Shown: positions 2,780 through 51,983, counted from the first letter of the stretch. The stretch is DNA of 64,000 nt from Ktedonospora formicarum (GCF_016587355.1 NZ_BNJF01000001.1:3189721-3253720); one strand, 5' to 3'. Notes: generated by a model from the letters alone, not told the origin. Numbers and translations are program-made.

Positions 2780-2829
2780 GGTCTTATTCTAAAATTAACG
2801 CCGCTGTCGCATTCAGATTTTCGGAGAAG
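2780..2829. repeat. Dispersed palindromic repeat (REP/MITE-like family), degenerate copy.
   Basis: ggtcttat...cgccgctgtcgcattcagattttcggagaag. It shares both termini with the family consensus and sits 150 bp upstream of purH. Confidence 0.5.
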
Positions 2830-2964
2830 ATGTAGAGGCTATGGTCTGGTCTATACTGATATGGAAAGATGGCATCTGATATAGCATGGCGGTCCTGTGC
2901 TGGCAACTGCTGTGTGGTACGTTTTTGTTAGGAGCTACGAGCACATTGCAGTGCTTGGTGATGT

Positions 2965-4506
2965 TTGAAAGGTTTTTTTATGAGAGCATTGATAAGCGTG
3001 GCGAATCGCGAAGGGGTGACTCGGTTAGCTCAGGAATTGGGAGATCTGGGAGTATCGCTTTTCTCTCCAGAGAACACACGAAGGACGCTACAGGAGGCTG
3101 GAATCCAGGCCGCTCCTATTGAAGAACTTACTCAATTACCCGCCATTCTGGATGGGAAATTGCAAAAAATGCATTATACCCTCCTGGCTGGTATCATGGC
3201 GCGTCGAGACCACCCCCGCCACAAAGAGGATTTGCGTGTACATCAAATCGAGCCAATCGATGTGGTTGTGATCAACTTTCCCGCGTTTAGCGTAAAACAA
3301 GGGATATCTACAACAGAGATAATGGAACAAGTTGATATCGGTAGTGAGACACTTGTCCGAGCTGCCGCCAGCAATTTCTCAGATGTGCTGGTGCTAGTCC
3401 GCCCACAAGACTATGGCTTAGTACTTCAGGAGTGGCGAGAGCAAGGTGAGGTAAGCGAGGGGACCAGGCGTCGACTGGCTGCTATCGCTTTTCAATATGC
3501 TGCAAGTTATGCTAGCGTCATTGCTGAGTATCTGCGCTCTTCAGGTGGTGACCTCTTCCCCGATGAATTGACGCTTCCCCTACGTTATGTGCAGGCGTTA
3601 CGATACGGAGAAAATCCACAGCAGCGAGCGGCCTTATACCGTTGGGTAATGCCATCACAGCCTGACACTCCACATGGCGCGTGCGTTGAACCGTCTCTGG
3701 CAACATCAGAGATGCTACAAGGTGAGGAGCTCTCCTATAACAATTTGCTGGATCTAAATGTAGCGATTGAGGCCGCGAGTTCCTTTACGGTGCCAGCCGT
3801 GGCTATTATTAAGCATACTAATCCCTGTGGATTGGCCTGCGGGGATACGCTGCTCGAAGCATACCAGCAGGCTCACGCAGGTGATCCTATTCCCGCCAGT
3901 GGTGGTATTGTTGGTTGTAACCGAGAGGTGAATGGTGACGTCGCGCACGAACTCAGCCAGCTATTCTATGAAGCGGTGGTCGCACCCTCTTTTAGTAAAG
4001 AGGCACTCTCTCTATTACGTAAGAAGCCCGCGATGCGCCTGATAGCAACGCATTGTCTACACAAGCCGCAGAAGCGAAGCACCCATGGGCTTAAAAAAGA
4101 GTTACGACCAGAGTATCCTCTTGATGTACGCTCAATCCAGGGAGGGCTCTTGCTTCAGACACCAGATTACCAGGGGGAGCAGGAGATCGAATATACGGTT
4201 GTGACAGAGCGGGACCCCAATTTGGAAGAGGTCACAGACCTGATGTTTGCTTGGAAGGTCGTGCGTCTGGTAAAATCGAACGCGATTGTCCTGGCGCATA
4301 AACTGTCATTAATTGGGGTTGGAGCGGGACAGATGAGCCGCCTGGCGAGCGTCCAACTGGCATTGGAAAAGGCTGGGAGTCGCGCGCGTGGTTCGGTGCT
4401 TGCTGCCGATGCTTACTTCCCATTCCCCGATGGAGTCGAAGCCGCCGCTCGGGCTGGTGTGACTGCTATTATCCAACCGGGGGAGCTAGGCGTGACGAAG
4501 AAGTAA
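2965..4506 (+). CDS. purH: Bifunctional AICAR transformylase / IMP cyclohydrolase.
   Basis: N-terminal MGS-like domain ([11 protein letters not shown]..., [11 protein letters not shown]) and C-terminal AICARFT motifs ([35 protein letters not shown]). The track start is TTG 2965; an ATG at about 2980 (MRALISV) is the more likely start. Confidence 0.9.
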
Positions 4507-4608
4507 TCCAGGCTGCCAATAGCTATGCTATTGCTATGATCTTTACCAGCCGCCGCCACTATCGTCATTAAGGGATTAAATGGTTCCATTATAGATTGTT
4601 CTCTGTCC

Positions 4609-4661
4609 GCGCTGGCTCGCGGGATTGGGCATATTGCAAAACCAATCCCGCGAGCCAGCGC
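4609..4661 (+). terminator. GC-rich 20-bp perfect hairpin downstream of purH, a probable terminator (weak U-tract).
   Basis: gcgctggctcgcgggattgg / ccaatcccgcgagccagcgc with a 13-nt loop, about 100 bp after the purH stop. Confidence 0.4.
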
Positions 4662-4868
4662 ACTGAGAGGTTTGGGCTAGAAGTTAGTTAATCTCAGCAG
4701 CGTATTCTGATGCAGAGAGTGGCAGAGGGAGAGTGCGAAAGGCGGAGTAGCTCGGTGTGGGCCTTGTTGAGGGAGGCTGGGACAGGCTAAGCAGAGATAT
4801 TGATTTATTTTGGCGCAACGACTACAATACGATTACCATTACGCATGGTACTTACTCCTTATACATAC

Positions 4869-4914
4869 GGAGACCTAAGCGCTGGTTGTGCTAGCGTCGT
4901 TGCTTTCGTATAAG
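4869..4914. repeat. Dispersed palindromic repeat family copy (reverse orientation).
   Basis: ggagacctaagcgctggttgtgctagcgtcgttgctttcgtataag. It shares gagacctaagc with the copy at 10298 and the terminus gctttcgtataag. Confidence 0.5.
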
Positions 4915-4953
4915 ATTGTAGAAGTGCCTGCGTGTTCAACCAGTTTTCACTAT

Positions 4954-5002
4954 GGTCTTATGCGAAAACCGACTCCGCTAGCGCGCTCAGGTTTTCGATA
5001 GG
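4954..5002. repeat. Dispersed palindromic repeat family, compact canonical copy.
   Basis: ggtcttatgcgaaaacc-gactccgctagcgcgctca-ggttttcgatagg. It is a near-perfect palindrome with a central gctagc. Confidence 0.7.
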
Positions 5003-5042
5003 TAGTATCTGGCAAAACCCTCCGCGAAAGGAGCCGCATACG

Positions 5043-5432
5043 GTGAATAGTCCTATAGAATTGCGCAAGGTTATCTGGGGCGCGGTCTTATCCCTGGCAT
5101 GGGTCTTTACTTTTGTGTTTGTCAATGGCAACTTGGTCATTGATTGGACAAATACTGGTAACGATCTTACGCCACTCAAGCCTCTGGTCATCCTCGTTGG
5201 CTTGCTCATTATCTTCTTCTTTAATCTCTTCTATCGTTCGAATCCAGAGACAACCAAACTTAACTGGACAGTGACCCTGACAATGGTCTGGATGGCGATG
5301 ATCCTCTTCTTCCCTTTCCGCACAGACAAAGCGGGCGGCGCGATGGGTTTCTTCGCGTTGATCGGAGGATTGGCTGTCGTGGTGCTGTGGGTTCGCTTCT
5401 TCTCAGATGAGATTTTCACTTCAAAATCCTAA
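5043..5432 (+). CDS. Hypothetical integral membrane protein (3-4 TM).
   Basis: The track ORF 4932..5432 begins inside the repeat element. A GTG at about 5043 preceded by AAAGGAG is the more plausible start. The product is hydrophobic (VLSLAWVFTFVFVNG..., LVILVGLLIIFFF...). Confidence 0.4.
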   Translation: MNSPIELRKVIWGAVLSLAWVFTFVFVNGNLVIDWTNTGNDLTPLKPLVILVGLLIIFFFNLFYRSNPETTKLNWTVTLTMVWMAMILFFPFRTDKAGGAMGFFALIGGLAVVVLWVRFFSDEIFTSKS

Positions 5433-5613
5433 AGTCAGCACACATCGGTAGGGAGATATGATAGGAGGCGGCTTCTGATTGCCTGCCCCTCAACTCCCTA
5501 CCTTTTTTGTGCCCTTTGGGATTCACTCTAATAATACCCAGATAAAGGGGGAGAAGCCATCACATTGTTTCTGCGATGGCTTCTCCCCCCTTATCAATCT
5601 AATATATTGTGTT

Positions 5614-6993: not shown

Positions 6994-7986
6994 ATGGGTT
7001 TCGCGAAGAAACTGGCTTCAACCGCACTGTTAGTAGGCGGCGCATTGGGAGCTCTGGCTATTTATAACAAGATGGTCGAGTCGATGGCTGGCGAACTTGA
7101 TACTGTCCTCACTGGCGAGGAGCGACGCTATCCCTGGAAATATGGCGATATGTTTTACAGCGTCAAGGGGGCTCGCGACGCGAAACCTCTCCTCTTTATT
7201 CATGGTTTTGGGCCGGGCGCATCATCCTATGAGTGGCGTAAGAATCTGGATGCTCTGGCCGAGAATTTCCGTGTGTATGCTATCGACCTGCTGGGGTATG
7301 GTCTCTCGGATCGCCCAGGGGTGGCGTATGATGCCGAAACCTATGCTGACCTGATACACGATTTCCTGCGCGAGGTCATCAATAAGCCTGTCACTGTTAT
7401 TGCGCACGGCCAAAGCTGCGCCTTTGTTATCGCGGATGCCTATCGCCGCCCGGAACTCTTTGAGCGCTTGATTCTGGTTGAGCCTTCTCCATCGATCTTG
7501 CAGGAGAACTATCCGAGCCCATTAGAGAGCGCCTGGCGTCTTCTGTTGCGTGCACCAATTGTAGGACAGGCTCTTTATAATATGCTTGCCTCACGTCAGG
7601 CTATTCGAGGCTACTATGATCAACTTGGTTACCATAATCCTGGCCTGATCTCTGACGAGTTGGTCGAGTATGTCTTTACCAGCGCGCATCAGCCTGGAGC
7701 ATCTTTTGCGGGCTCGTCTTTACTCAGCAATGGCCTGACGATGGATGTGCATGAGCCATTCGCGCGCCTGCAAGTGCCCGTGCTTGCAGTGTGGGGGCGT
7801 GAGGGCGAACTAACGCCTAGCGAAGTGAGTGGGGTCTTCAAGCGTGTCAACTCCACGATAGAAGTACGCATTATGGATAAGAGTCGCTATCATTTGCAAG
7901 ATGAGCAAGCTGTGAATTTCAACAAGCTTGTGCGCGAGTTCGCGACCAATACTCCTCTTAATATAAGTACATCAACTAATCGCTAA
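6994..7986 (+). CDS. Alpha/beta-hydrolase fold protein with an N-terminal membrane anchor.
   Basis: Motifs LLFIHGFGPGASSYEW and nucleophile elbow AHGQSCAF. ATG 6994 is preceded by AAAAAGGGAG; the track start 6958 is upstream. Confidence 0.7.
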   Translation: MGFAKKLASTALLVGGALGALAIYNKMVESMAGELDTVLTGEERRYPWKYGDMFYSVKGARDAKPLLFIHGFGPGASSYEWRKNLDALAENFRVYAIDLLGYGLSDRPGVAYDAETYADLIHDFLREVINKPVTVIAHGQSCAFVIADAYRRPELFERLILVEPSPSILQENYPSPLESAWRLLLRAPIVGQALYNMLASRQAIRGYYDQLGYHNPGLISDELVEYVFTSAHQPGASFAGSSLLSNGLTMDVHEPFARLQVPVLAVWGREGELTPSEVSGVFKRVNSTIEVRIMDKSRYHLQDEQAVNFNKLVREFATNTPLNISTSTNR

Positions 7987-8124
7987 GCGCAACGTCTCAC
8001 TATAGGTTTGTGAGACTGCTAACGATGAGGAAGGGTTAGCCAGGTGATCAAGCTCACCTGGCTAACCCTTCCCATTATTATGTTTGGTTCCAGCAATGCT
8101 GTGTGCCCTTGCTTCAAAATGACC

Positions 8125-10233
8125 TTATGCCGTCAGAGCGACGACTTTAAAGCTGAAGACATTGATATCGGCATACTTGGAGCGTAGCCCCACCTGCCCT
8201 GCCTCTGTATAACGATTATCCGTGATCTGACTGACCTGCTGCCCATCGATCAGGAACGTGACGACATTCCCCTTGACCTCCAGGCGATAGGTGTGCTGGG
8301 TGTTATCTACGGTATAGTCCTGTTTGTTCGTCTCGTCAGTGGCAGAGTCGTTATCAAGGTGCGCGATATAGGCGTCGTTATTGGAGGCATTTATGCCGCC
8401 TGCATAGCCGTTCTTCCCAGTCACGCTTCTGGCTACGAGGTTGAAGTTTGCGTCGCTTGAGACGCTGTTATTATATTGTATAACCGCTTCTACCGCATAG
8501 TCGCTACTGGTTGGCTTATAGGGCGCGATAAGAGTATAGTTCCCATCCTGGTTGGTACCATCACTCCCTAGAGACCCATTGCTGATCCACTTCCATTGTT
8601 TTCCAATCTTCCAGCCATCCGCGTTTGTGTTCCAATTGGCCTGGTAGAGAATTGTCTCTGGAATCGCCGTAGGTGTAGGCGTCATGGTTGGCGTCGGTGT
8701 CATAGTTGGTGTTGGTGTTGGCGTTGGTGTGGTCTGCGTGACGGCAGTGGGCGTTGAGGCGCTTTGTTTGGGCAAGAGCATTGTGCTAGCGTAAAAGACG
8801 CCACCAGCTATAACCAGTATGAGTAACAATAATGTGATAACCAGGGCCCATACTTTACCTCTGCGCTTCTTCGGCGCTTTTGGTGGTTGTGCGAGTGTAT
8901 TCCGCTCTTGCTGGTTGCTCTTCCGTGTTGGCTGTGAGCTATGTTCCTGCGTTGTGACACTCAGGGGCACTTTAGGTTCCGCTGGTGGCGTTGGCGTCTG
9001 TGGTTGATGAATAGTCGCGAAACCACTCACATCGGGTACGGTTTTTGTTGGTTGTGCCGGTACTGATTGTGAGAAGGCTGCATAGGCGTTTGAGGGATGT
9101 GAGGGTGATGACGGTGTTGGTTGCACCGGCGCTGGGGGATGGGCTGGTGTGGTGGGTGGCACTGACTGTATAGGCGTATAGCTTGGCGTTGCAGGCGGAG
9201 GTGCTGTTCTGGTTGGTGGATAATTGGGTGCGGAAGGCACGGGATGAGAAGGGGTCATATTCGGTGTTGGTATAGAGCGTGATTGATATGGGTCGATTGG
9301 GAAAATCTGGGGTGGAGGTGGCGGAATGATGGGTGTCTGTGCTCCTGGAGGAGGTGGCGGAATGATGGGCGTAGGATTGGCGCTTAGCTGAGTGGATTCA
9401 CTTGCTTTTGCCAGAGCATCGGCAAAGTCTGTAATAGAAGGAAAGCGCTGCTCTGGACCTTTGGCAAGCGCGCGATAGAGTGTGCCAACGATGTCAGGTG
9501 CTATGCCCGGCACTTTGTCTTGTGGTGGTGGCACTGGGGCGGTAAGATGTTGCGCAATCAGTTCTGCCATAGAGCCCTTGAAGGGGGGCTCGCCCGTGAG
9601 CCATTCATAGGCTACGACTGCCAGGGCATATTGATCGCTCGCGGGCACCACACGACCTTGTGTCTGTTCGGGAGCCATGTAGATCGCTGTTCCTGTGATG
9701 TTAGGGGCGCTTTGATGGGAACTCTGGGCGATAAGCGCGATACCAAAATCACTGAGGAGCACTTCGTTGTCCTTGCTTAACAGCATATTTTCTGGTTTGA
9801 CATCACGGTGAATGATCCGCTGCTGATGCCCATACTCCAGGGCGCTTGCTGCCTGCCGCGTGTAGGTAACAATGGTAGAGAGGGGCAAACGCGTTCCACG
9901 TGGATGTAAGTTGCGTAGCGAGCCCTGTGGGGCGTAACTCATAACCAGGAAAGGCCTATCCCGCTCGACGCCGTACTCGAGAATGCGTACGATGTGCGGG
10001 TGCTCCAGATGCGCTATGGTCTGAGCCTCGGATCGAAAGTTATCAACATTCTCGCTAGTGAGTCGGATGCGCAGGACCTTGATAGCGGCTTGCGTGTGAA
10101 GGTGAATATGCTCGCCCAGGTAGACGTCAGCGAAGCCCCCCTGCCCAAGAAGCTTGATTAGCTTGTAGTTACCTAGCTGCTGATTCAACAGGTCGTCGTG
10201 ATTATCCTTCATCTTCCCCCTCTGTAACTTCAT
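8125..10233 (-). CDS. Hanks-type Ser/Thr protein kinase with a Pro-rich linker, one TM and a C-terminal extracellular jelly-roll domain (DUF1080/LamG-like).
   Basis: Kinase motifs LGQGGFADVYLGEH, HRDVKPENMLL, DFGIA, APE. The ~150-aa Pro/Thr-rich low-complexity region is followed by a TM (VWALVITLLLLILVIAGGVF). The C-terminal domain ILYQANWNTNADGWK...GQVGLRSKYADINVFSFKVVAL resembles DUF1080. Confidence 0.85.
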   Translation of the reverse strand: MKLQRGKMKDNHDDLLNQQLGNYKLIKLLGQGGFADVYLGEHIHLHTQAAIKVLRIRLTSENVDNFRSEAQTIAHLEHPHIVRILEYGVERDRPFLVMSYAPQGSLRNLHPRGTRLPLSTIVTYTRQAASALEYGHQQRIIHRDVKPENMLLSKDNEVLLSDFGIALIAQSSHQSAPNITGTAIYMAPEQTQGRVVPASDQYALAVVAYEWLTGEPPFKGSMAELIAQHLTAPVPPPQDKVPGIAPDIVGTLYRALAKGPEQRFPSITDFADALAKASESTQLSANPTPIIPPPPPGAQTPIIPPPPPQIFPIDPYQSRSIPTPNMTPSHPVPSAPNYPPTRTAPPPATPSYTPIQSVPPTTPAHPPAPVQPTPSSPSHPSNAYAAFSQSVPAQPTKTVPDVSGFATIHQPQTPTPPAEPKVPLSVTTQEHSSQPTRKSNQQERNTLAQPPKAPKKRRGKVWALVITLLLLILVIAGGVFYASTMLLPKQSASTPTAVTQTTPTPTPTPTMTPTPTMTPTPTAIPETILYQANWNTNADGWKIGKQWKWISNGSLGSDGTNQDGNYTLIAPYKPTSSDYAVEAVIQYNNSVSSDANFNLVARSVTGKNGYAGGINASNNDAYIAHLDNDSATDETNKQDYTVDNTQHTYRLEVKGNVVTFLIDGQQVSQITDNRYTEAGQVGLRSKYADINVFSFKVVALTA

Positions 10234-10297
10234 TGGAAAATCTGAGCGCGGTTGTTGCTACGAACATCGATGTTGCCTTCGCGGTCGCTAGCGGCAT

Positions 10298-10387
10298 GGG
10301 CTTTCGCATGAGACCTAAGCAAAACCAACGTCGCAAGAGCGACGTTGGTCTCGTATCAACCCGAACGTGCTCAGGTTTGTGAATAAG
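10298..10387. repeat. Dispersed palindromic repeat family, compound copy, between the two kinase genes.
   Basis: ggctttcgcatgagacctaagcaaaacc...gtgctcaggtttgtgaataag. Confidence 0.55.
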
Positions 10388-10410
10388 TAAATAAAAACAA
10401 GCTGTCCTTA

Positions 10411-15079: not shown

Positions 15080-15155
15080 GGTCTTATGCGAAAACCTGAG
15101 CGCGTACGTTACAACGAACATCAACCCTCGTATGAGGGCTGGTTTTCGCATAAGG
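15080..15155. repeat. Dispersed palindromic repeat family, canonical copy in the rplY 5' leader.
   Basis: ggtcttatgcgaaaacctgagcgcg...ggttttcgcataagg. The 14-bp termini are perfectly inverted. Confidence 0.7.
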
Positions 15156-15188
15156 AGAGTGTACTTTTGTGAGAAGGAGAGATATCGT

Positions 15189-15830
15189 ATGGCGAAACCA
15201 ATCGAAATGGATGTCACCCCACGCGAGATTATGGGGAAGAAGACGAAGAGCTTGCGACGTCAGGGGCTTCTCCCTGGTAATATTGGTGGTCACAAGCTCG
15301 ACTCTGTTGCCGTTCAGTTTGATGAGAAGACCTTCACGCGTCTACAGCGCGAGAGTCCGGTAGGCAGTATCTATTCGCTAAACCTTCCCAAAGGGAAGCC
15401 TGAGACGGTGCTAGTTCGTCATGTGCAGCACGACCCGGTTTCAACCCAGGTTCTGCATGTCGATTTCTCTCGCATTAACCTAAACGAAGAGGTGAAAATC
15501 AAGATCCCACTGCACTTCGTTGGTGAGTCGCTTGCTATCCGCGATACAAAGGGTACTCTATTACACATGGACGCGCTTGAGGTCACATGCCAGGCATCTA
15601 AGATTGTTCCGGCAATTGAAGTGGACATCGCACGGCTGGCAACGCTTGATGATGTTATCTATGCGAAGGACGTGGAACTTCCCAAGGGCTATAAGCTCGC
15701 TACGGAGCCGGAAGAGTCGGTTGCCAAGGTCGCTCCTCCGAAGGTTGAGCTACCAGAGCCTACCGAAGAGGCTCCTGTGGAGGCTGCTCCTCCTGCTCCG
15801 GCTGAAGGTGAAAGTGGGTCCACAGACTAA
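15189..15830 (+). CDS. rplY: 50S ribosomal protein L25 / general stress protein Ctc.
   Basis: MAKPIEMDVTPREIMGKKTKSLRRQGLLPGNIGG... is typical of L25/Ctc, with an acidic Pro/Ala/Glu C-terminal tail. An AAGGAGAG Shine-Dalgarno precedes it. The track ORF's N-terminal extension reads through the repeat. Confidence 0.85.
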   Translation: MAKPIEMDVTPREIMGKKTKSLRRQGLLPGNIGGHKLDSVAVQFDEKTFTRLQRESPVGSIYSLNLPKGKPETVLVRHVQHDPVSTQVLHVDFSRINLNEEVKIKIPLHFVGESLAIRDTKGTLLHMDALEVTCQASKIVPAIEVDIARLATLDDVIYAKDVELPKGYKLATEPEESVAKVAPPKVELPEPTEEAPVEAAPPAPAEGESGSTD

Positions 15831-15961: not shown

Positions 15962-16028
15962 CTCGCCTCGGTTTATGTGAAGGTTTAGACGAAAACCAGC
16001 GTGCTATTACGCCTCGGTTTTTCACATA
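15962..16028. repeat. Dispersed palindromic repeat family copy.
   Basis: ggtttagacgaaaaccagcg... flanked by direct cgcctcggttt repeats. Confidence 0.5.
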
Positions 16029-16107
16029 TATTAGGAAATTTATAGTAACAACAATCTGGTAATTCAGCGCGTATAACAAAGGTAGGGTGTTACCAACATC
16101 GTCTAAG

Positions 16108-16193
16108 GGTCTAGATGAGAACCAATTCTTATGCGAGGGCAGGGCGGTATTCTCTCTTCTGCTGGCGCTTACGCGCTTAGGTGTTCGCATAGG
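16108..16193. repeat. Dispersed palindromic repeat family copy.
   Basis: ggtctagatgagaacc...gctggcgcttacgcgcttaggtgttcgcatagg. Confidence 0.6.
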
Positions 16194-16231
16194 AATGCAT
16201 AGAGTATTATGACCAGGAGCTAGAAGCAACC

Positions 16232-17573: not shown

Positions 17574-17640
17574 CAAAGGGAAGAGCATGATCCGCTGCTA
17601 TTTGAAGCAGATCATGCTCTTCCCTTTGTATTATCTTGTG
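17574..17640 (+). terminator. Probable intrinsic terminator of the glycosyltransferase gene.
   Basis: 19-bp perfect stem caaagggaagagcatgatc / gatcatgctcttccctttg with a 17-nt loop, starting 17 nt after the stop and followed by a U-rich tattatcttgtgtt. Confidence 0.5.
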
Positions 17641-18234: not shown

Positions 18235-18388
18235 GCACTGAGCACATATACAAATAAGCGGCGAGGATGCCAGTTGGAACGAAAAGTCGTGGTACATCAC
18301 GCATCGGGGACGTTGCCGGTTGCGTCGCTTCATATTGCCAAATTGGACCAAAAATTTTGGTGCCCGTCATACATGGCGGGCATTTAAA

Positions 18389-18434
18389 AATGACGCTATA
18401 AGATGTTGCATGCGCAACATTTTATAGCGTCATT
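18389..18434. other. 46-bp near-perfect nested palindrome between convergent genes. It may be a bidirectional terminator or a protein-binding site.
   Basis: aatgacgctataa-gatgttgcatgcgcaacat-tttatagcgtcatt. Confidence 0.35.
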
Positions 18435-18465
18435 GTAAATATAACCCAGTTTTGCGTAATGAGTA

Positions 18466-26381: not shown

Positions 26382-26398
26382 GAAACAAAGCTCCTTCT

Positions 26399-26445
26399 GC
26401 TTATTTGAAAACCTGAGCGTGGTAGTTGTTCCTACAAAAATACCG
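26399..26445. repeat. Dispersed palindromic repeat family, degenerate copy in the lysK 5' region.
   Basis: ttatttgaaaacctgagcgtgg... shares the left terminus and ctgagcg core. Confidence 0.45.
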
Positions 26446-30395: not shown

Positions 30396-30521
30396 AAGGC
30401 ATGGTCTGCGCCTACTAGAAGTCGGCATTGTCGAAAGAGCCACAACGTGCTATTCTTCATAGGAGAATATTGTATAGTTGCCCGGACTGTCGTGTGGGGC
30501 AACGTAAGGAGGGACTAATCT

Positions 30522-31093: not shown

Positions 31094-31157
31094 GGTCTTA
31101 GATGAGAACCAAAGCCGTGCCAGCGGCCAGAGTTTTGCTCAGGTTCTCTTATAAGAC
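31094..31157. repeat. Dispersed palindromic repeat family copy between convergent genes.
   Basis: ggtcttagatgagaacc...agttttgctcaggttctcttataagac. Confidence 0.6.
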
Positions 31158-31217
31158 ATGCATGGCGCACCTGCGACGCCTTTTTTGCATGGATTCGTAT
31201 GGGCGAGCGGAATTACT

Positions 31218-34664: not shown

Positions 34665-34728
34665 GGTCTTAGACGAAAACCAAACCCGCTCTTGCGGCTA
34701 GCGCTGCGCGCTTAGGTTTTCGGATAGG
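34665..34728. repeat. Dispersed palindromic repeat family copy in the 5' region of the ANTAR regulator gene.
   Basis: ggtcttagacgaaaacc...gcggctagcgctgcgcgcttaggttttcggatagg. Confidence 0.7.
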
Positions 34729-34826
34729 AATAAGTTCGAAAAACACTTTCGACGTACAAAAGAAAGTATATCATACCTGTTTTGGTGAGTCGATAGGCAA
34801 ATCAGCAGGCGCAGGAGGCCTTATTT

Positions 34827-35897: not shown

Positions 35898-36010
35898 GAG
35901 TTCTTTCCTCTTTCTATTGTGTGAACAACGGTTCTCCGTTTGCCTATTGCTGAGTAGAGCTCCTTCGAAAGTCAAAGCTGCTGTGGCGTTCTGACTTTCG
36001 AATAAAGAGA

Positions 36011-36041
36011 AACAAAAAAGCAGAGGAATTTTCCTCTGCTT
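36011..36041 (-). terminator. Intrinsic terminator inside the aroG leader (the attenuator terminator).
   Basis: Minus-strand RNA aagcagagga-aaat-tcctctgctt followed by UUUUUUG, about 115 nt upstream of the aroG start. Confidence 0.6.
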
Positions 36042-36088
36042 ATCCCAGCATGCTGGTGGTTTTTTTGCTCAGCCAAAGTGGCCCACCA

Positions 36089-36163
36089 TCATGCTGGGGG
36101 GCTAAACCAATAATAAAAATGCTGCATTTTCGGTTGTGCGACAAGGCATGTATCGCTGAGCAT
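36089..36163 (-). CDS. Putative attenuation leader peptide (24 aa) rich in aromatic codons.
   Basis: atg ctc agc gat aca tgc ctt gtc gca caa ccg aaa atg cag cat ttt tat tat tgg ttt agc ccc cca gca tga, giving MLSDTCLVAQPKMQHFYYWFSPPA. The stop codon lies inside a 16-bp stem. Confidence 0.45.
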   Translation of the reverse strand: MLSDTCLVAQPKMQHFYYWFSPPA

Positions 36164-36233
36164 ATGTTTTACCAACTGTGTGTATTTTGTGAGTAATATG
36201 GCTTCGATGCTCTTTACATCTAGCCTTTGATAG

Positions 36234-36263
36234 ATTATAAGCGCTGCCACGCAATAATGTCAA
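36234..36263 (-). promoter_or_regulatory. Consensus sigma-70-type promoter for the aroG leader.
   Basis: On the minus strand: TTGACA, an 18-nt spacer, then TATAAT. The predicted TSS is about 60 nt upstream of the leader ORF. Confidence 0.55.
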
Positions 36264-39499: not shown

Positions 39500-40690
<1,191 letters not shown>

Positions 40691-40854: not shown

Positions 40855-40883
40855 TTGAAAATCAAGTAAAGATAGTGTATGCT
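40855..40883 (+). promoter_or_regulatory. Candidate sigma-70-type promoter of the zinc-ribbon protein gene.
   Basis: TTGAAA, a 17-nt spacer, then TATGCT. This leaves a ~150-nt GC-rich leader before a TTG start with a perfect TAAGGAGGT Shine-Dalgarno. Confidence 0.4.
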
Positions 40884-41033
40884 GTTTCCCGGTATCCCAT
40901 CTCGGTCTCGCGTACGGTGCTCGTCCAGAGTTTACATACTTCCCTCGCTGGTAAGGGGAAAGAACCACTGGTGACATCTGCTAGGAGAAGGACCTGGAGG
41001 TTTACCATTCATTCACTCTAAGGAGGTCCCTAG

Positions 41034-41342
41034 TTGAGCTTCGTTGACAAAACCCTGAAGTGCCGTGATTGCGGAAATGATTTCGTCTTCACTGCCGGAG
41101 AGCAAGAGTTTTACCAGCAAAAGGGCTTGATGAACCAGCCGAGTCGTTGCCGCCCCTGCCGTGAGGCGCGCCGCAACTCAATGGGTTCTACTGGTCGTTC
41201 CGAGCGTGCCCCGCGAGAGATGCACACCGTTATTTGTGCCGAGTGCGGTACCGAGACGCAGGTTCCTTTCCTTCCTACGAAGGATCGCCCAGTCTATTGC
41301 AGCTCCTGCTTTGATAAAGTACGTGGAGTTGCCCGCAGCTAA
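41034..41342 (+). CDS. Small protein with two CxxC...CxxC zinc-ribbon units (zf-trcl-like); possibly nucleic-acid binding.
   Basis: CRDCGNDFVFTAGEQEFYQQKG..PSRCRPCR and CAECGTETQVPFLPTKDRPVYCSSC. TTG start with a strong Shine-Dalgarno. Confidence 0.6.
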   Translation: MSFVDKTLKCRDCGNDFVFTAGEQEFYQQKGLMNQPSRCRPCREARRNSMGSTGRSERAPREMHTVICAECGTETQVPFLPTKDRPVYCSSCFDKVRGVARS

Positions 41343-42502
41343 AGCGCGCACAGGAAGCGAGCGTTTATTTGAAAGAGAAGACCCGATATCGCTTTCAGCG
41401 AGGCGGCTTGCGGCTTGCATGAGACGCTGTGGCGCTTATGAGCAAGGACGCGATAGTATGCTCTACACTGAGGCAGCATATAGAAATCTTATCTATTCAT
41501 AACCTCTCGTTTTCAGCTACATAACAAAGGGCTAGATTGGGGTATGTTCTCGATCTAGCTTTTTACTTTTGTGCTAATATAGTGGTGTTATACGGCTTTA
41601 CTAGCCAATTGATGTAGTTCTACCATGAGATGGTATGTTAGCGCTCTTAGGGCTTGTCAAGCCATTTGTCTGCATGATGCCGAATGTCATACCACATATC
41701 ATTTATGGCAGGGCTTTGTTGACGCTTGAGCTCGTCTTGTCGTTTTTGTTCTTCCAGCGGCAAAGATTTACGCTTCTGCTTGAACAAGAAGAGTATCAAG
41801 AAGCCGAGTCCTGTTATAAGGAAGGTGCTAACGATTGCCGCGTTCCCATCCCCTATTTTGATTGTGCTTCCTAATAGCAGCACCAATAGTAGCTCCCAGG
41901 ACAAGAACTGCAATCTCGATATACTTCATGTTCCCCTCCAGAGGTATTATTATGCGCTCTTTTGCAGTAATGTATATGCTACCTATTTCGGACGAGGACA
42001 GGAGCTAAAGATCAAATATACATGTCAGCACACTTTTTGCGTACTAGCCTGCTCAGAATCCCTTGCGAACAGACAATGCTATGCGTCTTGAGTGAAGGAT
42101 TCTCATTTACTCTTCGGAAGATCTCACATTACAGTGGCTTGCAGCGTGAAAGTGTGTGCTCTGAGATGTTTCAAATCCGAAGAGGTAATACTCATCAATA
42201 ATTAAGCATGCAAGCAGGATATACTAGGAATATAGTGACGTGTTGGCGCGTTTAAACGTATTACAAGGTAAGACTACTGTACCTCCTTGATCGGTTGTGC
42301 GCGCTGACTACACACCTGAGCTTTTTAATTTTTGCTCTTCTGTGGAGTCTTAGCTTGACAGAGGGGTACCGCACTTTATAATAAAGTAATAAGTCCTCAA
42401 ATGAAAACCAATGGCACTATTGTCACTTGTGCTTATGTATTCAGGTTTTCAAAAAAGGAGTACACCCATTACTCGTAGACAGAAAGCCCTACCTTCAAGA
42501 GG

Positions 42503-42601
42503 AGGCATTTCTTACGGGTGCTTTGTGTGGGAAGAGACCGCGCAAATAGGTCTTGCCACAAAATGAAAAGGTATATCACGAAGCACCCGTAAGAAATGCC
42601 T
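42503..42601. repeat. 21-bp perfect inverted repeat with a 57-bp spacer (MITE-like, or a long structured-RNA stem).
   Basis: aggcatttcttacgggtgctt ...57 nt... aagcacccgtaagaaatgcct. The spacer carries an inner agacc/ggtct pair. Confidence 0.6.
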
Positions 42602-42697
42602 TCTCTCCCACTTTTATCGCTATTTTGTAAGGTCGGGGAAAATATCCGGTATTTAGAGCGAGAGAAAATGGGGAGAGCGTAATTGCTCGTGTCCCAG

Positions 42698-42796
42698 GGC
42701 TTATGCGAAAATCACACTCTTGGGAAAGGTTACCTCGAGGTAGAACAGAGAGACCGCTGTCGTGGCGAGCGCTCATATGTTCAGATTTTCAAAGGG
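42698..42796. repeat. Dispersed palindromic repeat family copy in the rel 5' region.
   Basis: ggcttatgcgaaaatc ... gctcatatgttcagattttcaaaggg. Confidence 0.55.
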
Positions 42797-42950
42797 GGCG
42801 AGCACTGGGTTACAGTATGGATTGAAAGAATGCAGCCGAGAAGGATGTCAATATACGCTTCCTGTGACGTACTTGGCTGAAGGGTTTGACTTGTCGGGAT
42901 ATTACATGGCTACCAATTTTGAGAGAAGCATCCAAGATTCGGAGAGGACA

Positions 42951-45293: not shown

Positions 45294-45823
45294 GTGTATA
45301 TGTGCATATTTGCGGGTATTGGTGCTACGAGATAAATGTCAGGATAAGCCTGGCGCTCAAAGAGCATTTGATAACGTACAGAACATAGTGCCTACACTGA
45401 GAGCTCAATTCTTCAAGGCATCTTCATAAGTGATGCTGCTTTACACTAGCTACATATGAACTACAGTTTCCCACCACGTAATTTGTCCTAGCCCATAAGA
45501 CGTGCGCGAGTGTATCCTTGTCATAAGGTGTACTACTATATGCTAATGTGTGGTTGGTATTGGATGTTTCTGGCTGTTTTGATTGTTTATATCTATGGGA
45601 GGGCCCGTAGGAAGATTGTCGTGTTAAATGGGCCTGTAGGGGCGCTGTGTTCAACAACATCTAATGTCAAACGTATACTAAGCAGAGTGCAAGTTACCAG
45701 GGATGGTTTTCATGTGAGTGGTGCTCGAATATCTACTACAAGGCTAAGATATGCATGGCTATGCCGTCTTACCAGATATTGGGTAGATATTTTTCAGTAG
45801 AACTCACTAAACAAAGAACTACT

Positions 45824-48307
45824 ATGATTCACATAGAGAAACACGTGGCACTTCATAACGAAACTACCACACAAATTGCTTCATTACGCCAGCAAATACG
45901 CACCTACATGTCAGACGACGATGTAGCAATGGTTGAACGCGCACTTCACCTGGTATTAGAGGCTTGTGGCATTGTAGAGGCTGGAGAGCGTCTGGTGCCT
46001 CCCCTTGAGTATGCGTTAGGCATCGCAGATATCCTCGCAAGCATGCATATGGATGCTGCAGGTGTTGCCGCTGGCTTGGTCTTTGAGGCCGCCGACGCTG
46101 ATCTGGTAAGTCTGGAAGAGATTGAGGAGGGTGTTGGGAGCGCAACGTCGCGCGTGGTTGGTAGCATGGAGCGTTTCAACATTCTGGAGCGCAAGAAGAT
46201 GAACGCGACCGCCGCCAGTGTTGCCTTGAGCGCGCAGAATGTCCAGACTTCAGCTATCAAGAAGGGCCATGACGAGAGGGAAGAGGGAGGAACAAGCTCA
46301 GCGAGCGAGAAGAAGCCTCGCGTACGAGAAGCCTTGCGTCGTCAGCAGGCCGAAACAGTCCGTAAGATGTTTGTGGCAATGGCGGAGGACCCGCGTGTCG
46401 TCTCCCTTAAACTAGCATACAGGCTTTTTGTGATGCGCCATATGTCCCAACCTGATTACCAGGGGGATCGACAAGAGATGCTAGCGACGGCTGAGGAGAC
46501 GCGCGAGATTTATGCACCCCTGGCTGGTCGCCTGGGTATGTCTCGAGTTGAAGGCGAGCTCGAAGATCTGACATTCCAGCTTTTGGAGCCTGAGAAGTAT
46601 CAATGGGTGAAGGGCATTGTCGAGGCTGAGAGAATACAATGGCGTTCTTATGTCGATCAGGTGTGTGAGATTCTCAGGAATGAAATGAAGGCTATAGGCG
46701 TGAGAGCCGAGGTTTCAGGACGCGTGAAGCGGTATTATAGCTTTTATCGCAAGCTAGAGCGCAATGCGGGCGACGTGGATGGCGATTTTGAGGTTTTGAA
46801 GGAAACCGCAGATGTGAATCAGATCCATGACCTGATAGCTTTTCGTATCCTGGTCGATACCACCCCTGATTGCTATGTCGCCTTGGGACATGTGCATAGC
46901 CTCTGGAAACCCAAGGAAGGGCGTATCAAGGACTATATCGCGAATCCCAAGCCTAATGGCTATAGCGCGCTTCATACGACTGTTTTCTGTCAGGATAATC
47001 AGCTTGTCGAGATTCAGATACGCACGCATACGATGCATGAGATGGCGGAATATGGCGTTGCTATGCATTGGCACTATAAGGATGTTGGCGACAATGCCTC
47101 CTCAACCGCTAAGGAACTTCTGACCTGGATTAACCAACTGGCTGAGTGGCAGCATGAAATCAAGGCCGCTGATGGCAGCGATTCGGATTTTGTTGATGCT
47201 ATCAAGGATGACCTATTTCAGGAACAAATCTTCATTTTTACGCCAAAAGGAGAGGTGAAGGACCTGCCGGTTGGCTCAACACCACTGGATTTTGCCTATC
47301 GTATCCACAGCAAAATAGGTGATAGTTGCGCGGGTGCGCGCATCATTACTCATGCCGAAGGACCTGATGGTGGTCGTCTCCTGACTCGGATGGTGCCTCT
47401 AGATTATGAGCTGAAGAGCGGGGAGATCGTTGACATTGTTACCAATCGCACGGCGCATCCTACACGCGATTGGCTCAGCTTCGCACGGACTGCTGCCGCA
47501 CGCAATAAAATTCGCCGCTATCTCAAGATTCATGAGCGCGATATCAATATCCAGATTGGTAAGGAGCGCCTCGATAAGGTGATTAAGGCAATTGCGGGTC
47601 TGCGTGGGATGGAGGTGATTACCGAGGATTTAGAGAACTGGCTTTGCCAGGAACTCCATATGGACTCGTTTGAGGATATCCTTTCCGCCATTGGCGCGGA
47701 TGATATGAGACCCCATGGTGTCGCGGTCAAGATTCAGGAGTACTTCCAGGGGCGTGAGGGGCGTGAGAATAGAGAAGAGTCCGAAGAGCCTGTACTACCT
47801 ACCGTTAATCGGCAACCCGCTGCTAATCTGCAAGTAGCAGGTGTAGATGGTTTGTTGACCCGGTTGGCGAATTGCTGTTGCCCCTTGCCTGGAGACGAGA
47901 TTGCCGGTTTTATTAGTCGAGGCAAGGGCGTGATTGTCCATCGCGCGGATTGCCCTAATGTCGTGCGTTTACGCGAGCGTAGTGGGGAACGCTTTATTAC
48001 AGTGAGTTGGCAAGGTATGAGCCAGCCACGCTATCATGTTCCTATTATTGTCTTCGCGCGTGATCGCGCAGGCTTGATACGCGATATCGCTACCGCCATC
48101 TCCGAATATGGGTTGAACCTGCTGGCAATCAATACGCATGCTAATAGCCATCAAGAGCGCATTCTCGTCACTGCAACACTGGAGATGAATGACCTTGAAG
48201 TGATGCCACGTGTCTTTAAACGCCTGGAGAAGGTCAAAGATGTGTTGCAAGTAGAGCGCGATATGGGACATAAACGGGCGCCATTGTCCTCAGGAGCAGA
48301 TGCATAG
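45824..48307 (+). CDS. RelA/SpoT-family (p)ppGpp synthetase paralog with a degenerate (probably inactive) HD hydrolase domain.
   Basis: It has the same domain order as rel, with intact synthetase motifs (FRILVDT, GRIKDYIANPKPNGYSALHTTV, EIQIRT). The HD motifs are lost: HP becomes PP, LLHDVVEDTD becomes LVFEAADAD, and LADRVHNMRT becomes LAYRLFVMRH. The start is uncertain (ATG 45755, 45761 or 45824). Confidence 0.85.
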   Translation: MIHIEKHVALHNETTTQIASLRQQIRTYMSDDDVAMVERALHLVLEACGIVEAGERLVPPLEYALGIADILASMHMDAAGVAAGLVFEAADADLVSLEEIEEGVGSATSRVVGSMERFNILERKKMNATAASVALSAQNVQTSAIKKGHDEREEGGTSSASEKKPRVREALRRQQAETVRKMFVAMAEDPRVVSLKLAYRLFVMRHMSQPDYQGDRQEMLATAEETREIYAPLAGRLGMSRVEGELEDLTFQLLEPEKYQWVKGIVEAERIQWRSYVDQVCEILRNEMKAIGVRAEVSGRVKRYYSFYRKLERNAGDVDGDFEVLKETADVNQIHDLIAFRILVDTTPDCYVALGHVHSLWKPKEGRIKDYIANPKPNGYSALHTTVFCQDNQLVEIQIRTHTMHEMAEYGVAMHWHYKDVGDNASSTAKELLTWINQLAEWQHEIKAADGSDSDFVDAIKDDLFQEQIFIFTPKGEVKDLPVGSTPLDFAYRIHSKIGDSCAGARIITHAEGPDGGRLLTRMVPLDYELKSGEIVDIVTNRTAHPTRDWLSFARTAAARNKIRRYLKIHERDINIQIGKERLDKVIKAIAGLRGMEVITEDLENWLCQELHMDSFEDILSAIGADDMRPHGVAVKIQEYFQGREGRENREESEEPVLPTVNRQPAANLQVAGVDGLLTRLANCCCPLPGDEIAGFISRGKGVIVHRADCPNVVRLRERSGERFITVSWQGMSQPRYHVPIIVFARDRAGLIRDIATAISEYGLNLLAINTHANSHQERILVTATLEMNDLEVMPRVFKRLEKVKDVLQVERDMGHKRAPLSSGADA

Positions 48308-48667: not shown

Positions 48668-48727
48668 TAGTAAGCCCCCACAGGAGGAGAGGCCAGGATC
48701 AGGTGACCCTCCCCTCCTGTGGGGGCT
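48668..48727. terminator. GC-rich 18-bp perfect hairpin between relA-like and the sigma factor gene; a probable terminator for the minus-strand sigma gene.
   Basis: gtaagcccccacaggagg / cctcctgtgggggcttac with a 23-nt loop, about 70 bp after the sigA stop. Confidence 0.5.
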
Positions 48728-48793
48728 TACTAACACACTATGTTGTGTAATATGCCTGCTCATGCAGCATAGAAATTCATGTTGAATGACTGA

Positions 48794-50056: not shown

Positions 50057-50280
50057 TGTGCGCCCTCCATGAAAAAATGGTATATCCTAAGCAGCAAGAT
50101 ATATTTCATCGGTTTGGTCCTACACTCAGGAAAGCGAGCCTTCATCGGACCAAGGAGTCCGTCGTACGCCGAGTGGGAGGAATTCAATGATGTGTACCCT
50201 ATCTACTAGATAGCAACAAAGCCAGGTCGGAAATTATTCCTAAACCAATTATAACCTATGGCCCCCTTTCATTCTAGTCC

Positions 50281-51072
50281 TTATGACTCATTTTTTCGCC
50301 AAAGGCTGGCAAAACTGTACAAACTCGTATAAAATTTGTCTTTTTTATGTATACGTTTGACACCCCTGGAAAGTGCCAGAATGAGTCCGGACACTCTCCT
50401 ATTCTTAGGTTTTAGGTGAGAGCTAACATTGCTCTCACGCCCGGATTTTTCGGGTAAGAGAGCATAACGCTGCAATAATTTGCGTCCAAGAGAAAGCGCA
50501 AATAGTGAAATTATGCCTCCAATAATGATGAGTGAAGAGGTGGTAAGAAGTTGAGCCCCATACTGCCAGTTTGCACCAAGAAAGAAGCCTAGCATAAGGG
50601 GAAGTAATGCTCCAATGGTTTCACCAACAATATCAAGCAAGAGAAAGCGCGGAAAGGGATAGAATTCCAGCCCCGCGAGCAAATTCACCGGGCCGCCAAA
50701 GCCTGAGGCAAGGAAGCGCGAGAGAAAGATTGCCCAGTCACCATGCCGTCGGAAGTAGTTATGAGAGCGTTTCAAGGTCCGCTGGGAGAGAAAACGATTA
50801 TGTGGGTGCTTTTGGATCCATCGAGAAAGTGAGAGTCCGCAGCAACGCCCGAGCCAGTATCCTACGCTATCGCCACATACTGAGGCGCTAACAATGACAA
50901 GTGTCAAGCTGAAGAGATTAAAGCGCTCAAGTGCCGCGAGTGTGCCAGCCACTATCACAATGAGGCTAATTGGAAGCGGTAAGCCGATGGCGGCGACGAA
51001 GACTACAAGCCACAAAGCAGGATAGCCGAACTGCTGAAGCCAGAGTAGGAGTGTTGGGAGCAACTCTTGCAA
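50281..51072 (-). CDS. DedA/SNARE-associated (VTT-domain) family membrane protein.
   Basis: ...FGYPALWLVVFVAAIGLPLP..., F.G.GR..LS.. style reentrant-loop motifs, and a basic C-terminal extension. Confidence 0.7.
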   Translation of the reverse strand: MQELLPTLLLWLQQFGYPALWLVVFVAAIGLPLPISLIVIVAGTLAALERFNLFSLTLVIVSASVCGDSVGYWLGRCCGLSLSRWIQKHPHNRFLSQRTLKRSHNYFRRHGDWAIFLSRFLASGFGGPVNLLAGLEFYPFPRFLLLDIVGETIGALLPLMLGFFLGANWQYGAQLLTTSSLIIIGGIISLFALSLGRKLLQRYALLPEKSGRESNVSSHLKPKNRRVSGLILALSRGVKRIHKKDKFYTSLYSFASLWRKNES

Positions 51073-51408
51073 GGTTCTGAATCCCTTCTGCTGTCGCCGA
51101 TATCTGGCACTTGAGATTGTGTCATCTTAGTATGCCCAACATATGAGCCAGGCTGTCAACTAGAACGTATAGGTGACCTCTCTTGATACAGTGATGTTAT
51201 CGATGTTGCCTATGCGCGGGATGAGAGGCGTGTAAATTTGTTACGCTTTATGTTGAATATACCACATATCTATTATGCTTGTGTTTCAGTATTGCTCACA
51301 GGCAAGATATTGCGATTTCACACCTGCGCGCTGTGGGGAATAGGAAAATCTTGAGTATAGAGAGCATTTTGTTGACGCCAACACTCCGAATTCTCTAGAA
51401 TAGGCCTC

Positions 51409-51861
51409 ATGAATATCACTACTAATACACCAATAACAGTCGCTATCAAGCGTATAGATACAACGCTTCCGCTGCCAGGCCATGCGACGGGAGGATCGGT
51501 TGGCTTTGATCTGGTGTGCCGCGAGACGGTCACCATAGAGCCGCGAGAATTGGGACGCGTGCCCGGAAATGTCATTGTACAGACGCCGCCGGGATACATG
51601 CTAATGCTAACTATGCGGAGCAGCACCGCGAAACGCAAGGGGTTGCTCATGCCGAATGGAGTCGGGATTATTGATCAGGATTACAGCGGCGAGGGCGATG
51701 AAATTCTGATCTCAGTATATAACTTCCGCGATGAGCCTGTTACAGTGGAACGCGGCGAGCGGATTGCGCAAGGCATCTTTGTTCCCATTGCTCAAGTAGC
51801 CTGGAATGAGGTTGACGAAATGGGCCAAACGAGAGGAGGCTTTGGCAGTACCGGCCACTAA
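51409..51861 (+). CDS. dut: dUTP diphosphatase.
   Basis: Motifs ATGGSVGFDL, GLLMPNGVGIIDQDYSGE, RIAQ, and the C-terminal motif V GGFGSTG. Confidence 0.9.
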   Translation: MNITTNTPITVAIKRIDTTLPLPGHATGGSVGFDLVCRETVTIEPRELGRVPGNVIVQTPPGYMLMLTMRSSTAKRKGLLMPNGVGIIDQDYSGEGDEILISVYNFRDEPVTVERGERIAQGIFVPIAQVAWNEVDEMGQTRGGFGSTGH

Positions 51862-51913
51862 GCCTGCGAGCATATCTGGTAATTTGCTGTGGTCTATGCT
51901 ACGATACTACTAC

Positions 51914-51983
51914 GGTCTTATACGAAAACCAATGTCGCCTGAACGGCGGCTAGCACTGCCGCGCTCAGATTTTCGGATATAGA
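51914..51983. repeat. Dispersed palindromic repeat family, canonical copy between dut and the J-domain gene.
   Basis: ggtcttatacgaaaacc...cggcggctagcactgccgcgctcagattttcggatat. Confidence 0.7.

Follow-up and report, generated by a model that had tools for sequence, protein, structure and literature searches.

A dense family of hairpin-forming, probably MITE-like repeats in the gene leaders of Ktedonospora formicarum

What is the short, palindrome-like repeat that recurs between the genes of Ktedonospora formicarum (Ktedonobacteria, Chloroflexota), and why does it lie mostly in front of start codons? We addressed this question in a 64-kb window, i.e., the whole stretch of 64,000 nt that was analysed (GCF_016587355.1, NZ_BNJF01000001.1:3189721-3253720), which is an ordinary housekeeping region. 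An initial annotation of this DNA had listed 15 intergenic copies and had offered three options for their nature: repetitive extragenic palindromic (REP) elements, MITEs (miniature inverted-repeat transposable elements) or sites bound by a global regulator or a nucleoid protein. Our analysis supports the second option, through imperfect terminal inverted repeats, 3-bp direct repeats, two pairs of filled and empty sites and lineage-specific insertions at four loci. The family is probably a MITE-like non-autonomous element of the Ktedonobacteraceae, whose bias towards leaders would come from A/T-rich targeting together with selection.

The family stood out well above chance. The 17-mer GGTCTTATRCGAAAACC, with up to 3 mismatches, matched the window 9 times against 0.19 expected from shuffles, and the 8-mer CGAAAACC matched 8 times against 1.2 expected. 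A covariance model, R1, was built on an alignment (A2) of 16 copies, 13 from the window and 3 from relatives. With filters off, R1 gave 15 strong window matches of 31-72 bits (E <= 7e-6) and three degenerate ones of 12-22 bits (26397-26541, 35957-36009 and 15982-16030), which confirmed the abundance claimed originally. Two of the strong matches (59260-59322, 38.9 bits; 42393-42457, 31.5 bits) were outside the training set and absent from the initial list. The 15 strong copies are secure, because the best R1 score in a control of 250 kb of unrelated loci, picked for exact arm or core motifs, was 24.8 bits. The three weak copies rest on additional evidence beyond the R1 score, namely arm motifs at 15982-16030 and the similarity between 26506-26540 and the hairpin at 35957-36009. 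The density is one copy per 3.6 kb, and the 18 copies total 1307 bp, which is about 10% of the intergenic DNA. All 15 of the coordinates first listed hold family sequence, but those at 15962-16028, 26399-26540 and 35965-36007 are the weak, degenerate matches (12-22 bits). Three entries had to be redrawn: the supposed single copy at 10298-10387 joins the 5' arm of one element on the minus strand (10228-10315) to an entire plus-strand element (10316-10388), the supposed separate copies at 26399-26445 and 26483-26540 belong to a single composite of about 145 nt, of which they form the ends, and the rplY copy combines plus-oriented termini with an inverted core.

Searches elsewhere returned nothing beyond chance. 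The 17-mer gave 34 single, scattered matches to unrelated taxa in a genome-contig collection, none of them in Ktedonobacteria and the number at or below chance, and a metagenome-contig scan for arm, gap and core-arm gave 3 matches, all within coding sequences of unrelated contigs and attributable to chance. BLAST of one copy against plasmid and phage collections found short chance matches only, and a search by kinase domain for paralogous loci brought up no K. formicarum protein. Rfam 15 gave zero matches at gathering thresholds and, in E-value mode, none on catalogued copies; a weak chance match to a microRNA model at 4602-4668 partly overlapped an uncatalogued 14-bit R1 match at 4628-4680. 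A full-text search of the literature library on Ktedonobacter or Ktedonobacteria repeats, MITEs and insertion sequences found nothing relevant, and the main text of a large census of prokaryotic MITEs is silent on both Chloroflexi and Ktedonobacteria. The family is previously undescribed and belongs to a familiar kind of bacterial repeat.

Each unit is bounded by imperfect terminal inverted repeats, GGTCTTATRCGAAAACC ... GGTTTTCG(N)ATAGGNAG. From 5' to 3' it consists of GGTCTTATRCGAAAACC, a variable 4-6-bp hairpin, CTAGCGC-loop-GCGCTYAG and GTTTTCG(N)ATAGGNAG, and the consensus reads GGTCTTATGCGAAAACC AA CGCCGC-loop-GCGG CTAGCGC-loop-GCGCTCAG GTTTTCG(G)ATAGG(N)AG. The modelled fold is a Y-shaped three-way junction. 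Its outer helix is formed by the arms, with 8 core pairs (CGAAAACC/GGTTTTCG) and 4-5 imperfect outer pairs; when GGTCTTATRCGAAAACC is set against the reverse complement of GGTTTTCG(N)ATAGG, there are 12 modelled pairs and 82% of the cells are paired. Hairpin 1 (4-6 bp) differs in sequence between copies, and hairpin 2 has the conserved stem AGCGC/GCGCU. The whole element is therefore not the near-perfect palindrome that had been described: pairing is limited to arms of 8-13 bp, and the core is asymmetric, the variable hairpin being followed by a CTAGCGC..GCGCTYAG segment that adjoins the right arm only. The string 'cctgagcgcg' at the left of some copies marks a copy or core in the opposite orientation. 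Copies measure 49-145 nt, the differences being due to insertions in the loops and between the helices, and copies of the Ktedonobacter robiniae type carry a CCCCATTCGGGG hairpin within the second loop. In the rplY copy the termini are plus-oriented and the core is inverted, an arrangement that recombination between the element's own inverted arms would give.

The alignment supports the paired regions. Standard pairs filled 81% of the A2 cells compared with 75% in column shuffles and 27-46% in slid-partner controls, and 22 cells were double changes against 9.2 ± 2.7 in shuffles, a number that 0 of 500 shuffles reached. Covariation exceeded shuffles in all three helices. Hairpin 1 runs through the compensatory series CCGC/GCGG, GCCAC/GUGGC, GUCAC/GUGAC and CGUCGC/GCGACG, and the arms through CGAAAACC/GGUUUUCG, UGAGAACC/GGUUCUCU and GCAUUUGCC/GGCAAAUGG. 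As for the claim that the copies form stable hairpins, it held for 5 of 14 copies, with z-scores of -3.8 to -5.3 and 0 of 200 shuffles as stable, but four others (2780, 10228, 42697 and 51914) folded no better than shuffles. The strand asymmetry of G-U pairs was not decisive, 9 copies folding better in the canonical and 5 in the reverse sense.

Syntenic loci were compared in K. robiniae (L035), Thermosporothrix hazakensis (L036), a soil relative with about 90% DNA identity to K. robiniae (L041), Ktedonobacter sp. SOSP1-52 (L042), the closest available relative of K. formicarum (L043-L045) and a contig bearing Rel (L046). Presence or absence differed at four loci, i.e., the rplY leader, the spacer between rplY and the glycosyltransferase gene, the leader of a gene encoding 166 aa, and the ANTAR and rel leaders; at two of the four, a filled site can be set beside a clean empty one. 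In the rplY leader, the soil relative reads TTTGCAAGAA followed directly by GGAGAATT, and precisely at this junction K. robiniae carries about 87 nt of element together with a second GAA. The K. formicarum insertion lies about 18 nt upstream of the K. robiniae insertion point, where L044 and the soil relative are empty. The two insertions are at different sites, and the leader was therefore hit independently in two lineages. The 166-aa gene leader shares its promoter (TTGATT-17-TACAAT) and the region of the ribosome-binding site (RBS) with K. robiniae, and in K. formicarum it contains about 170 extra nt with two copies; copy 4954-5005 has TAT on both sides, and a single TAT is present at the empty site of K. 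robiniae. In the rplY-glycosyltransferase spacer, a terminator hairpin and its flanks align across four genomes, and the two copies are found only in K. formicarum. The ANTAR leader shares its promoter and RBS-proximal part with T. hazakensis, from which the element is absent. Likewise, the rel leader shares its promoter with L046, which lacks the elements, and is about 520 nt long compared with about 225 nt there. R1 found no copies in 21 kb of SOSP1-52, 20 kb of T. hazakensis, L043-L045 or L046, and in the K. robiniae and L041 loci it found only the three training copies. Most K. formicarum copies are less similar to copy 4954 than the copies of K. robiniae and L041 are; therefore, the family predates the split of these genera.

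Target-site duplications, which the initial annotation had suggested looking for, were found. Of 13 copies, five are bordered by exact 3-bp direct repeats, against 1.5 expected (flank permutation P = 0.012), and in these five the right end reads ...ATAGGNAG or a near variant. One-mismatch repeats flank the K. formicarum rplY copy (TAT/TGT) and the copy at 16107-16196 (AAG/AAT). Seven of nine 5' flanks are TAN, which indicates an A/T-rich target preference. Two empty sites hold the trinucleotide once, consistent with insertion and duplication, and older copies are without repeats, as decayed insertions should be. Duplication of 3 bp with a variable sequence suggests a staggered-cut DDE transposase and argues against a Y1/HUH enzyme of the IS200/IS605 or REP-associated tyrosine transposase (RAYT) kind. 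Y1/HUH enzymes are not known to generate a target duplication.

MITEs are recognised by a length below 500-800 bp, terminal repeats of at least 10-15 bp, duplications of 2-10 bp and A/T-rich intergenic targets (PMC11602168, PMC10969869). The present units, at 49-145 nt, are too short for a transposase and contain no open reading frame (ORF); the 12 modelled pairs of the outer helix fall within the usual terminal-repeat range of about 10-30 bp, and the 3-bp repeats within that of the duplications. The copies are dispersed, intergenic and numerous (15 strong and 3 weak, without coding overlap), and they show insertion polymorphism at four loci.

The statement that none lies in a coding sequence holds after refinement of four start codons (lysK ATG 26381, kinase ATG 10212, rplY ATG 15189 and the GTG of the 166-aa gene at 5043): the overlap of the 18 copies with coding sequence is then 0 bases, although 79% of the region is coding, and 18 independent random placements would give this with a probability of about 0.21^18. 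Longest-ORF starts at 10233 (kinase), 15012 (rplY), 26477 (lysK), 35975 (aroG) and 42762 (rel) fall in or upstream of copies. They are spurious, and the true starts follow an RBS just 3' of the element. The public rel annotation (764 aa) also disagrees with the start conserved among relatives, ATG 42908. As originally described, most copies lie upstream of start codons: 17 of 18 are in spacers facing a gene start, the remaining one being between convergent genes, and for 10 of the 18 the insertion point is no more than 60 nt from a start codon, where uniform intergenic placement predicts 22% (binomial P = 0.002). Other copies were collapsed out for this count, and the P value is indicative, neighbouring copies being not fully independent.

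Promoter-like sites were predicted upstream of copies at five loci, and three of these sites are common to relatives without the element, e.g., that at 4800-4828, which precedes copy 4954-5005. With such sites 5' of the copies, at least nine copies should be transcribed within 5' leaders, which lends indirect support to the proposal that they form hairpins in 5' untranslated regions. No convincing -35/-10 pair directed outward was found at either end of the element, with the sole exception of a possible -35 supplied by the degenerate copy at 16019. Copies occur in both orientations with respect to the gene that follows (about 9 sense and about 4 antisense), which argues against a sequence-specific RNA function and fits insertion in random orientation.

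These observations suggest how a MITE-like element may have spread. A transposase encoded elsewhere in the genome would recognise the two imperfect terminal repeats and insert the unit at A/T-rich trinucleotides, mostly TAN, with a 3-bp duplication as from a staggered-cut DDE enzyme. In K. formicarum, insertions have accumulated almost only in non-coding DNA, mostly in 5' leaders between a pre-existing promoter and the RBS. As Y-shaped stem-loops of either orientation, the copies would be co-transcribed with purH, rplY, lysK, rel, kinase, regulator and other genes. The bias towards leaders would most likely combine A/T-rich targeting of leaders, as A/T-rich trinucleotides in a genome of 52% GC should concentrate around promoters and leaders, with purifying selection against insertions into coding sequences, promoters and terminators. 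Effects on mRNA stability, processing or attenuation would be a side effect and not the reason for the existence of the family.

Several points weigh against this interpretation. Exact duplications are present at only 5 of 13 copies. No transposase, integrase or RAYT gene was found in the window by Pfam scans, and neither the window nor the related loci yielded an autonomous partner or a matching transposase end. An IS630-family insertion sequence (IS), with a helix-turn-helix domain, a DDE_3 transposase and the terminal repeat CTAGTGTTTAGTTCGGTTAG, lies between purH and the next gene at about 830-2010 of the K. robiniae locus L035 and is absent from the corresponding site of K. formicarum; it was rejected as the autonomous partner, its terminal repeat being unrelated. 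The copies are old and heterogeneous, unlike a recent burst, with a mean pairwise identity of 60% and a maximum of 82% outside the tandem pair. Furthermore, the internal GCGCTCAG is conserved at 0.9-0.99 compared with 0.6-0.8 for the terminal repeats, and conservation is highest in the columns CGCGCTCAGG instead of the terminal repeats. The tandem variant at 30259-30398 retains the core but has both arms swapped for a different, yet complementary, pair (GCATTTGCC/GGCAAATGG), and hairpin 1 covaries, in keeping with the excess of double-change cells over shuffles (22 against 9.2 ± 2.7). Core conservation, the arm-swapped variant and covariation are unexplained by simple transposase recognition of terminal repeats. 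They leave room for a structural requirement beyond end-binding, which may concern a folded DNA substrate of transposition, or RNA.

An RNA requirement would be met if the element had been exapted as a cis-acting leader module, a Y-shaped RNA with a near-invariant GCGCUCAG that is bound or cleaved by a host factor and maintained by selection; an RNase III/E/J-type nuclease or an RNA-binding protein would then set mRNA stability or translation. Covariation in three helices above shuffles, the better conservation of the core than of the termini, the clustering of copies 3' of promoters and just before the RBS, and the folding of several copies far better than shuffles are all in its favour, as is the processing of Correia and enterobacterial repetitive intergenic consensus (ERIC) elements by RNase III or RNase E (PMC10969869). 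However, the copies sit in leaders in both orientations, the rplY insertions are independent, at different sites in two lineages and missing from two others, four copies fold at shuffle level, one is between convergent genes, and Rfam has no match, so that we consider such a module unlikely. Quite unlikely, too, is a regulon spread by the mobile element, in which one trans-acting factor would recognise the Y-shaped RNA with its GCGCUCAG junction and would link rel, rplY, lysK, purH, kinases and regulators. The stronger conservation of the core than of the termini, the compensatory changes, the arm-swapped variant and the clustering before the RBS are consistent with it but are no proof. A small ribozyme of the hammerhead type, superficially alike in topology, was rejected, as there is no CUGANGA...GAAA core and Rfam is silent, and the dual-hexaloop target of ANTAR proteins was rejected as well, the loops being of 3-5 nt and the A/G pattern not fitting.

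A REP-type element, or a REPIN, that a RAYT, i.e., an IS200/IS605-like Y1 transposase, moves as a hairpin of single-stranded DNA would account for a very dense, extragenic, palindromic family with compensatory changes in its stems and a conserved short motif at the hairpin foot; density, extragenic position and compensatory stems are also known from bacterial interspersed mosaic elements (BIMEs). REPs, however, are hairpins of 20-40 nt that have a conserved 5' tetranucleotide, make no target duplication, occur mostly behind genes and are linked to a RAYT gene. Here, variable 3-bp direct repeats flank the copies and the empty sites fit duplication, the 5' flanks are variable with no fixed target tetranucleotide, the units span 50-145 nt with a three-way junction, and they stand at the 5', not the 3', ends of genes. 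The REP option of the initial annotation is thus poorly supported, and we regard it as decidedly improbable. A mobile transcriptional attenuator or terminator, acting in either orientation through a G+C-rich hairpin followed by GGUUUUCG, with the CGAAAACC arm giving an A-tract, seems very improbable. A simple scan does flag the internal hairpin plus the right arm (GGTTTTCG) in about 8 places in 6-7 copies (4879-4897; 15125-15138 and 15141-15122; 15999-16012 and 16013-15998; 31128-31113; 34700-34712; 59294-59307), but there are just four U residues, sequestered in the long outer stem, the genuine local terminators appear to be long perfect hairpins without a U-tract, and efficient termination in the rplY, lysK, purH and rel leaders would be deleterious. 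A weak attenuating effect is conceivable, whereas a strong one is unlikely in leaders of essential genes. A global regulator or nucleoid protein that binds to CGAAAACC and GGTTTTCG as half-sites would explain the over-representation of the 8-mers (8 against 1.2 expected). The half-sites, however, are spaced from 12 to about 110 nt apart, the tandem variant keeps the core with entirely different arms, and copies are gained and lost between relatives, which makes this option, likewise raised at the outset, scarcely credible.

A MITE-like element thus remains the preferred reading, and its closest counterparts in working appear to be Correia elements in Neisseria and ERIC elements in enterobacteria, both hairpin MITEs that are co-transcribed with genes. 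Correia repeat-enclosed elements are about 100-155 bp long, have terminal inverted repeats and hundreds of intergenic copies, and are often co-transcribed as hairpins that RNase III can cut (see also PMC10969869). The K. formicarum family resembles them in small size, terminal inverted repeats, a short A/T-rich target duplication and intergenic position. It differs in having no sequence similarity, a variable 3-bp duplication instead of the TA of Correia, a core that is a two-hairpin junction of very variable length, and a host from another phylum. With ERIC elements, also called intergenic repeat units (IRUs), it shares old, heterogeneous imperfect palindromes that are intergenic, in both orientations, with internal indels and presence/absence between species; ERIC copies are transcribed, whereas transcription in K. 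formicarum is predicted. ERICs are about 127 bp long with a conserved central inverted repeat, lie mostly in 3' or intercistronic positions and show no sequence similarity, and the leader bias is a feature of K. formicarum, not of ERIC. Integron attC sites are alike in conserved inverted ends, a centre variable in length and sequence, and a hairpin fold, but the K. formicarum elements do not follow promoterless cassettes and their neighbours are housekeeping genes with their own promoters. An identity as attC was rejected: the R''/R' core sites RYYYAAC ... GTTRRRY are absent, the termini being CGAAAACC/GGTTTTCG.

Table 1. Repeat copies, predicted promoters and long hairpins (window positions unless a locus is named; R1 scores in bits).
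Feature	Position	Strand	R1	3-bp repeat	Remarks
purH leader copy	2780-2832	+	44.3		somewhat decayed; about 8 nt after promoter-like site 2743-2772; fold at shuffle level
166-aa gene leader copy	4862-4917	-	32.9		antisense to gene; absent from orthologous K. robiniae leader
Shortest intact copy, 166-aa gene leader	4954-5005	+	49.1	TAT	repeats at 4951-4953 and 5006-5008
Kinase leader copy	10228-10315	-	43.9	TTA	ends 15 nt before ATG 10212; repeat read on minus strand
Copy head-to-head with 10228-10315	10316-10388	+	39.6		
rplY leader copy	15080-15159	+ (termini)	54.8		score on minus strand (core inverted); 31 nt before ATG 15189; z = -4.3; orthologous leaders of L044 and L041 empty
Degenerate copy, rplY-glycosyltransferase spacer	15982-16030	-	12.3		arm motifs present; absent from K. 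robiniae, L041 and L043
Glycosyltransferase leader copy	16107-16196	+	46.4		35 nt before ATG 16232; no counterpart in K. robiniae, L041 or L043
Composite or nested copy of about 145 nt, lysK	26397-26541	-	20-22		score on both strands; ends 15 nt before ATG 26381
Tandem variant pair	30259-30398	-	59.9, 59.4		72-nt period; 96% identical; core kept
Copy between convergent genes	31094-31158	+	53.4		z = -5.3; sole copy not facing a gene start
ANTAR regulator leader copy	34665-34730	+	72.4	TAA	best-scoring; antisense to gene
Short degenerate hairpin, aroG leader	35957-36009	-	20.7		related to family right end; 80% over 35 nt to 26506-26540
rel leader copy 1	42393-42457	+	31.5		about 10 nt after -10 box of rel promoter 42355-42382
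rel leader copy 2, long	42697-42797	+	44.0		110 nt before ATG 42908; no counterpart in L046
dut/J-domain gene copy	51914-51984	+	66.8	TAC	52 nt before ATG 52037
Copy absent from the initial list	59260-59322	+	38.9		23 nt before ATG 59346; clean Y-fold, z = -4.3
K. robiniae rplY copy				TTC	
Promoter-like site, purH	2743-2772	+			
Promoter-like site, 166-aa gene	4800-4828	+			common to relative without element
Promoter-like site, lysK	26745-26717	-			
Promoter-like site, ANTAR regulator	34793-34765	-			common to relative without element
Promoter-like site, rel	42355-42382	+			12/12 consensus matches; common to relative without element
Long hairpins, window	4609-4661, 5541-5595, 8029-8072, 17574-17628, 18384-18439, 48668-48732, 54628-54688, 57930-57978				
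Long hairpins, K. robiniae (L035)	2691-2766, 5125-5198, 7091-7169				

The window has a GC content of about 0.52, a positive GC skew throughout and 12.7 kb of intergenic DNA. Its genes include purH, psuG, Ser/Thr kinase genes, polX, rplY, plsX, lysK, an acyl-CoA dehydrogenase gene, aroG, the ANTAR response regulator gene, tgt, genes for two RelA/SpoT paralogues and a sigma-70 factor, dut, and the genes for the peptidases PepP and Map. The L25 protein (rplY, 15189-15830) matches that of K. formicarum at 100% identity, and its next relatives are from an uncultured organism (77%), K. robiniae (72%), a forest-soil contig (68%) and T. hazakensis (53%); the closest Rel homologue, P0149, is 86% identical.

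Some other features of the region were recorded. Two concern the parts at 42355-42908 and 45755-48307: the two RelA/SpoT paralogues lie in tandem in both K. formicarum and L046, and the rel leader contains, beside its two repeat copies, a unique 109-nt hairpin with 30-nt arms (42498-42606). The aroG leader (3-deoxy-D-arabino-heptulosonate 7-phosphate synthase) is about 330 nt long on the minus strand (35900-36263) and has, in order, a promoter with 12/12 consensus matches (36263-36234), a hairpin (36044-36098), a terminator-like hairpin with a T-run (36041-36018), the family-related hairpin and the RBS. It looks like a transcription attenuator or an unrecognised riboswitch, with no Rfam match. 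A small zinc-ribbon gene (41034-41342) has a promoter-like site at 40855-40883 and a leader segment at about 40891-40935 that is near-identical in L046 (74% Rel), with diverged flanks, and may be a conserved leader RNA. Many genes are followed by long, unique, near-perfect hairpins with stems of 19-38 bp, for the most part lacking a U-tract; these fall outside the repeat family and are probably the terminators of this lineage. Coding repeats, tandem or dispersed, occur within ORFs without an assigned function: repeats with 180-nt and 84-nt periods lie at 55271-55794, and a duplication of about 500 nt is found near the start of the window, with its two parts 1528 nt apart (2-538 and 1530-2066).

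Ktedonobacteria have very large genomes, a complex development and long intergenic regions. In a group whose repeat content is undescribed, the present family occupies about 10% of the intergenic DNA of a housekeeping region and lengthens the leaders of central genes, as in rel (about 520 compared with about 225 nt). For genome annotation, unrecognised elements distort gene-start calls, four longest ORFs beginning spuriously in or beyond a copy, and they could be mistaken for conserved structures of the riboswitch kind. Were the density the same across the genome, copies would number in the thousands, which would provide a useful marker for strain typing. The family would also offer a natural experiment on the tolerance of hairpin insertions in 5' leaders.

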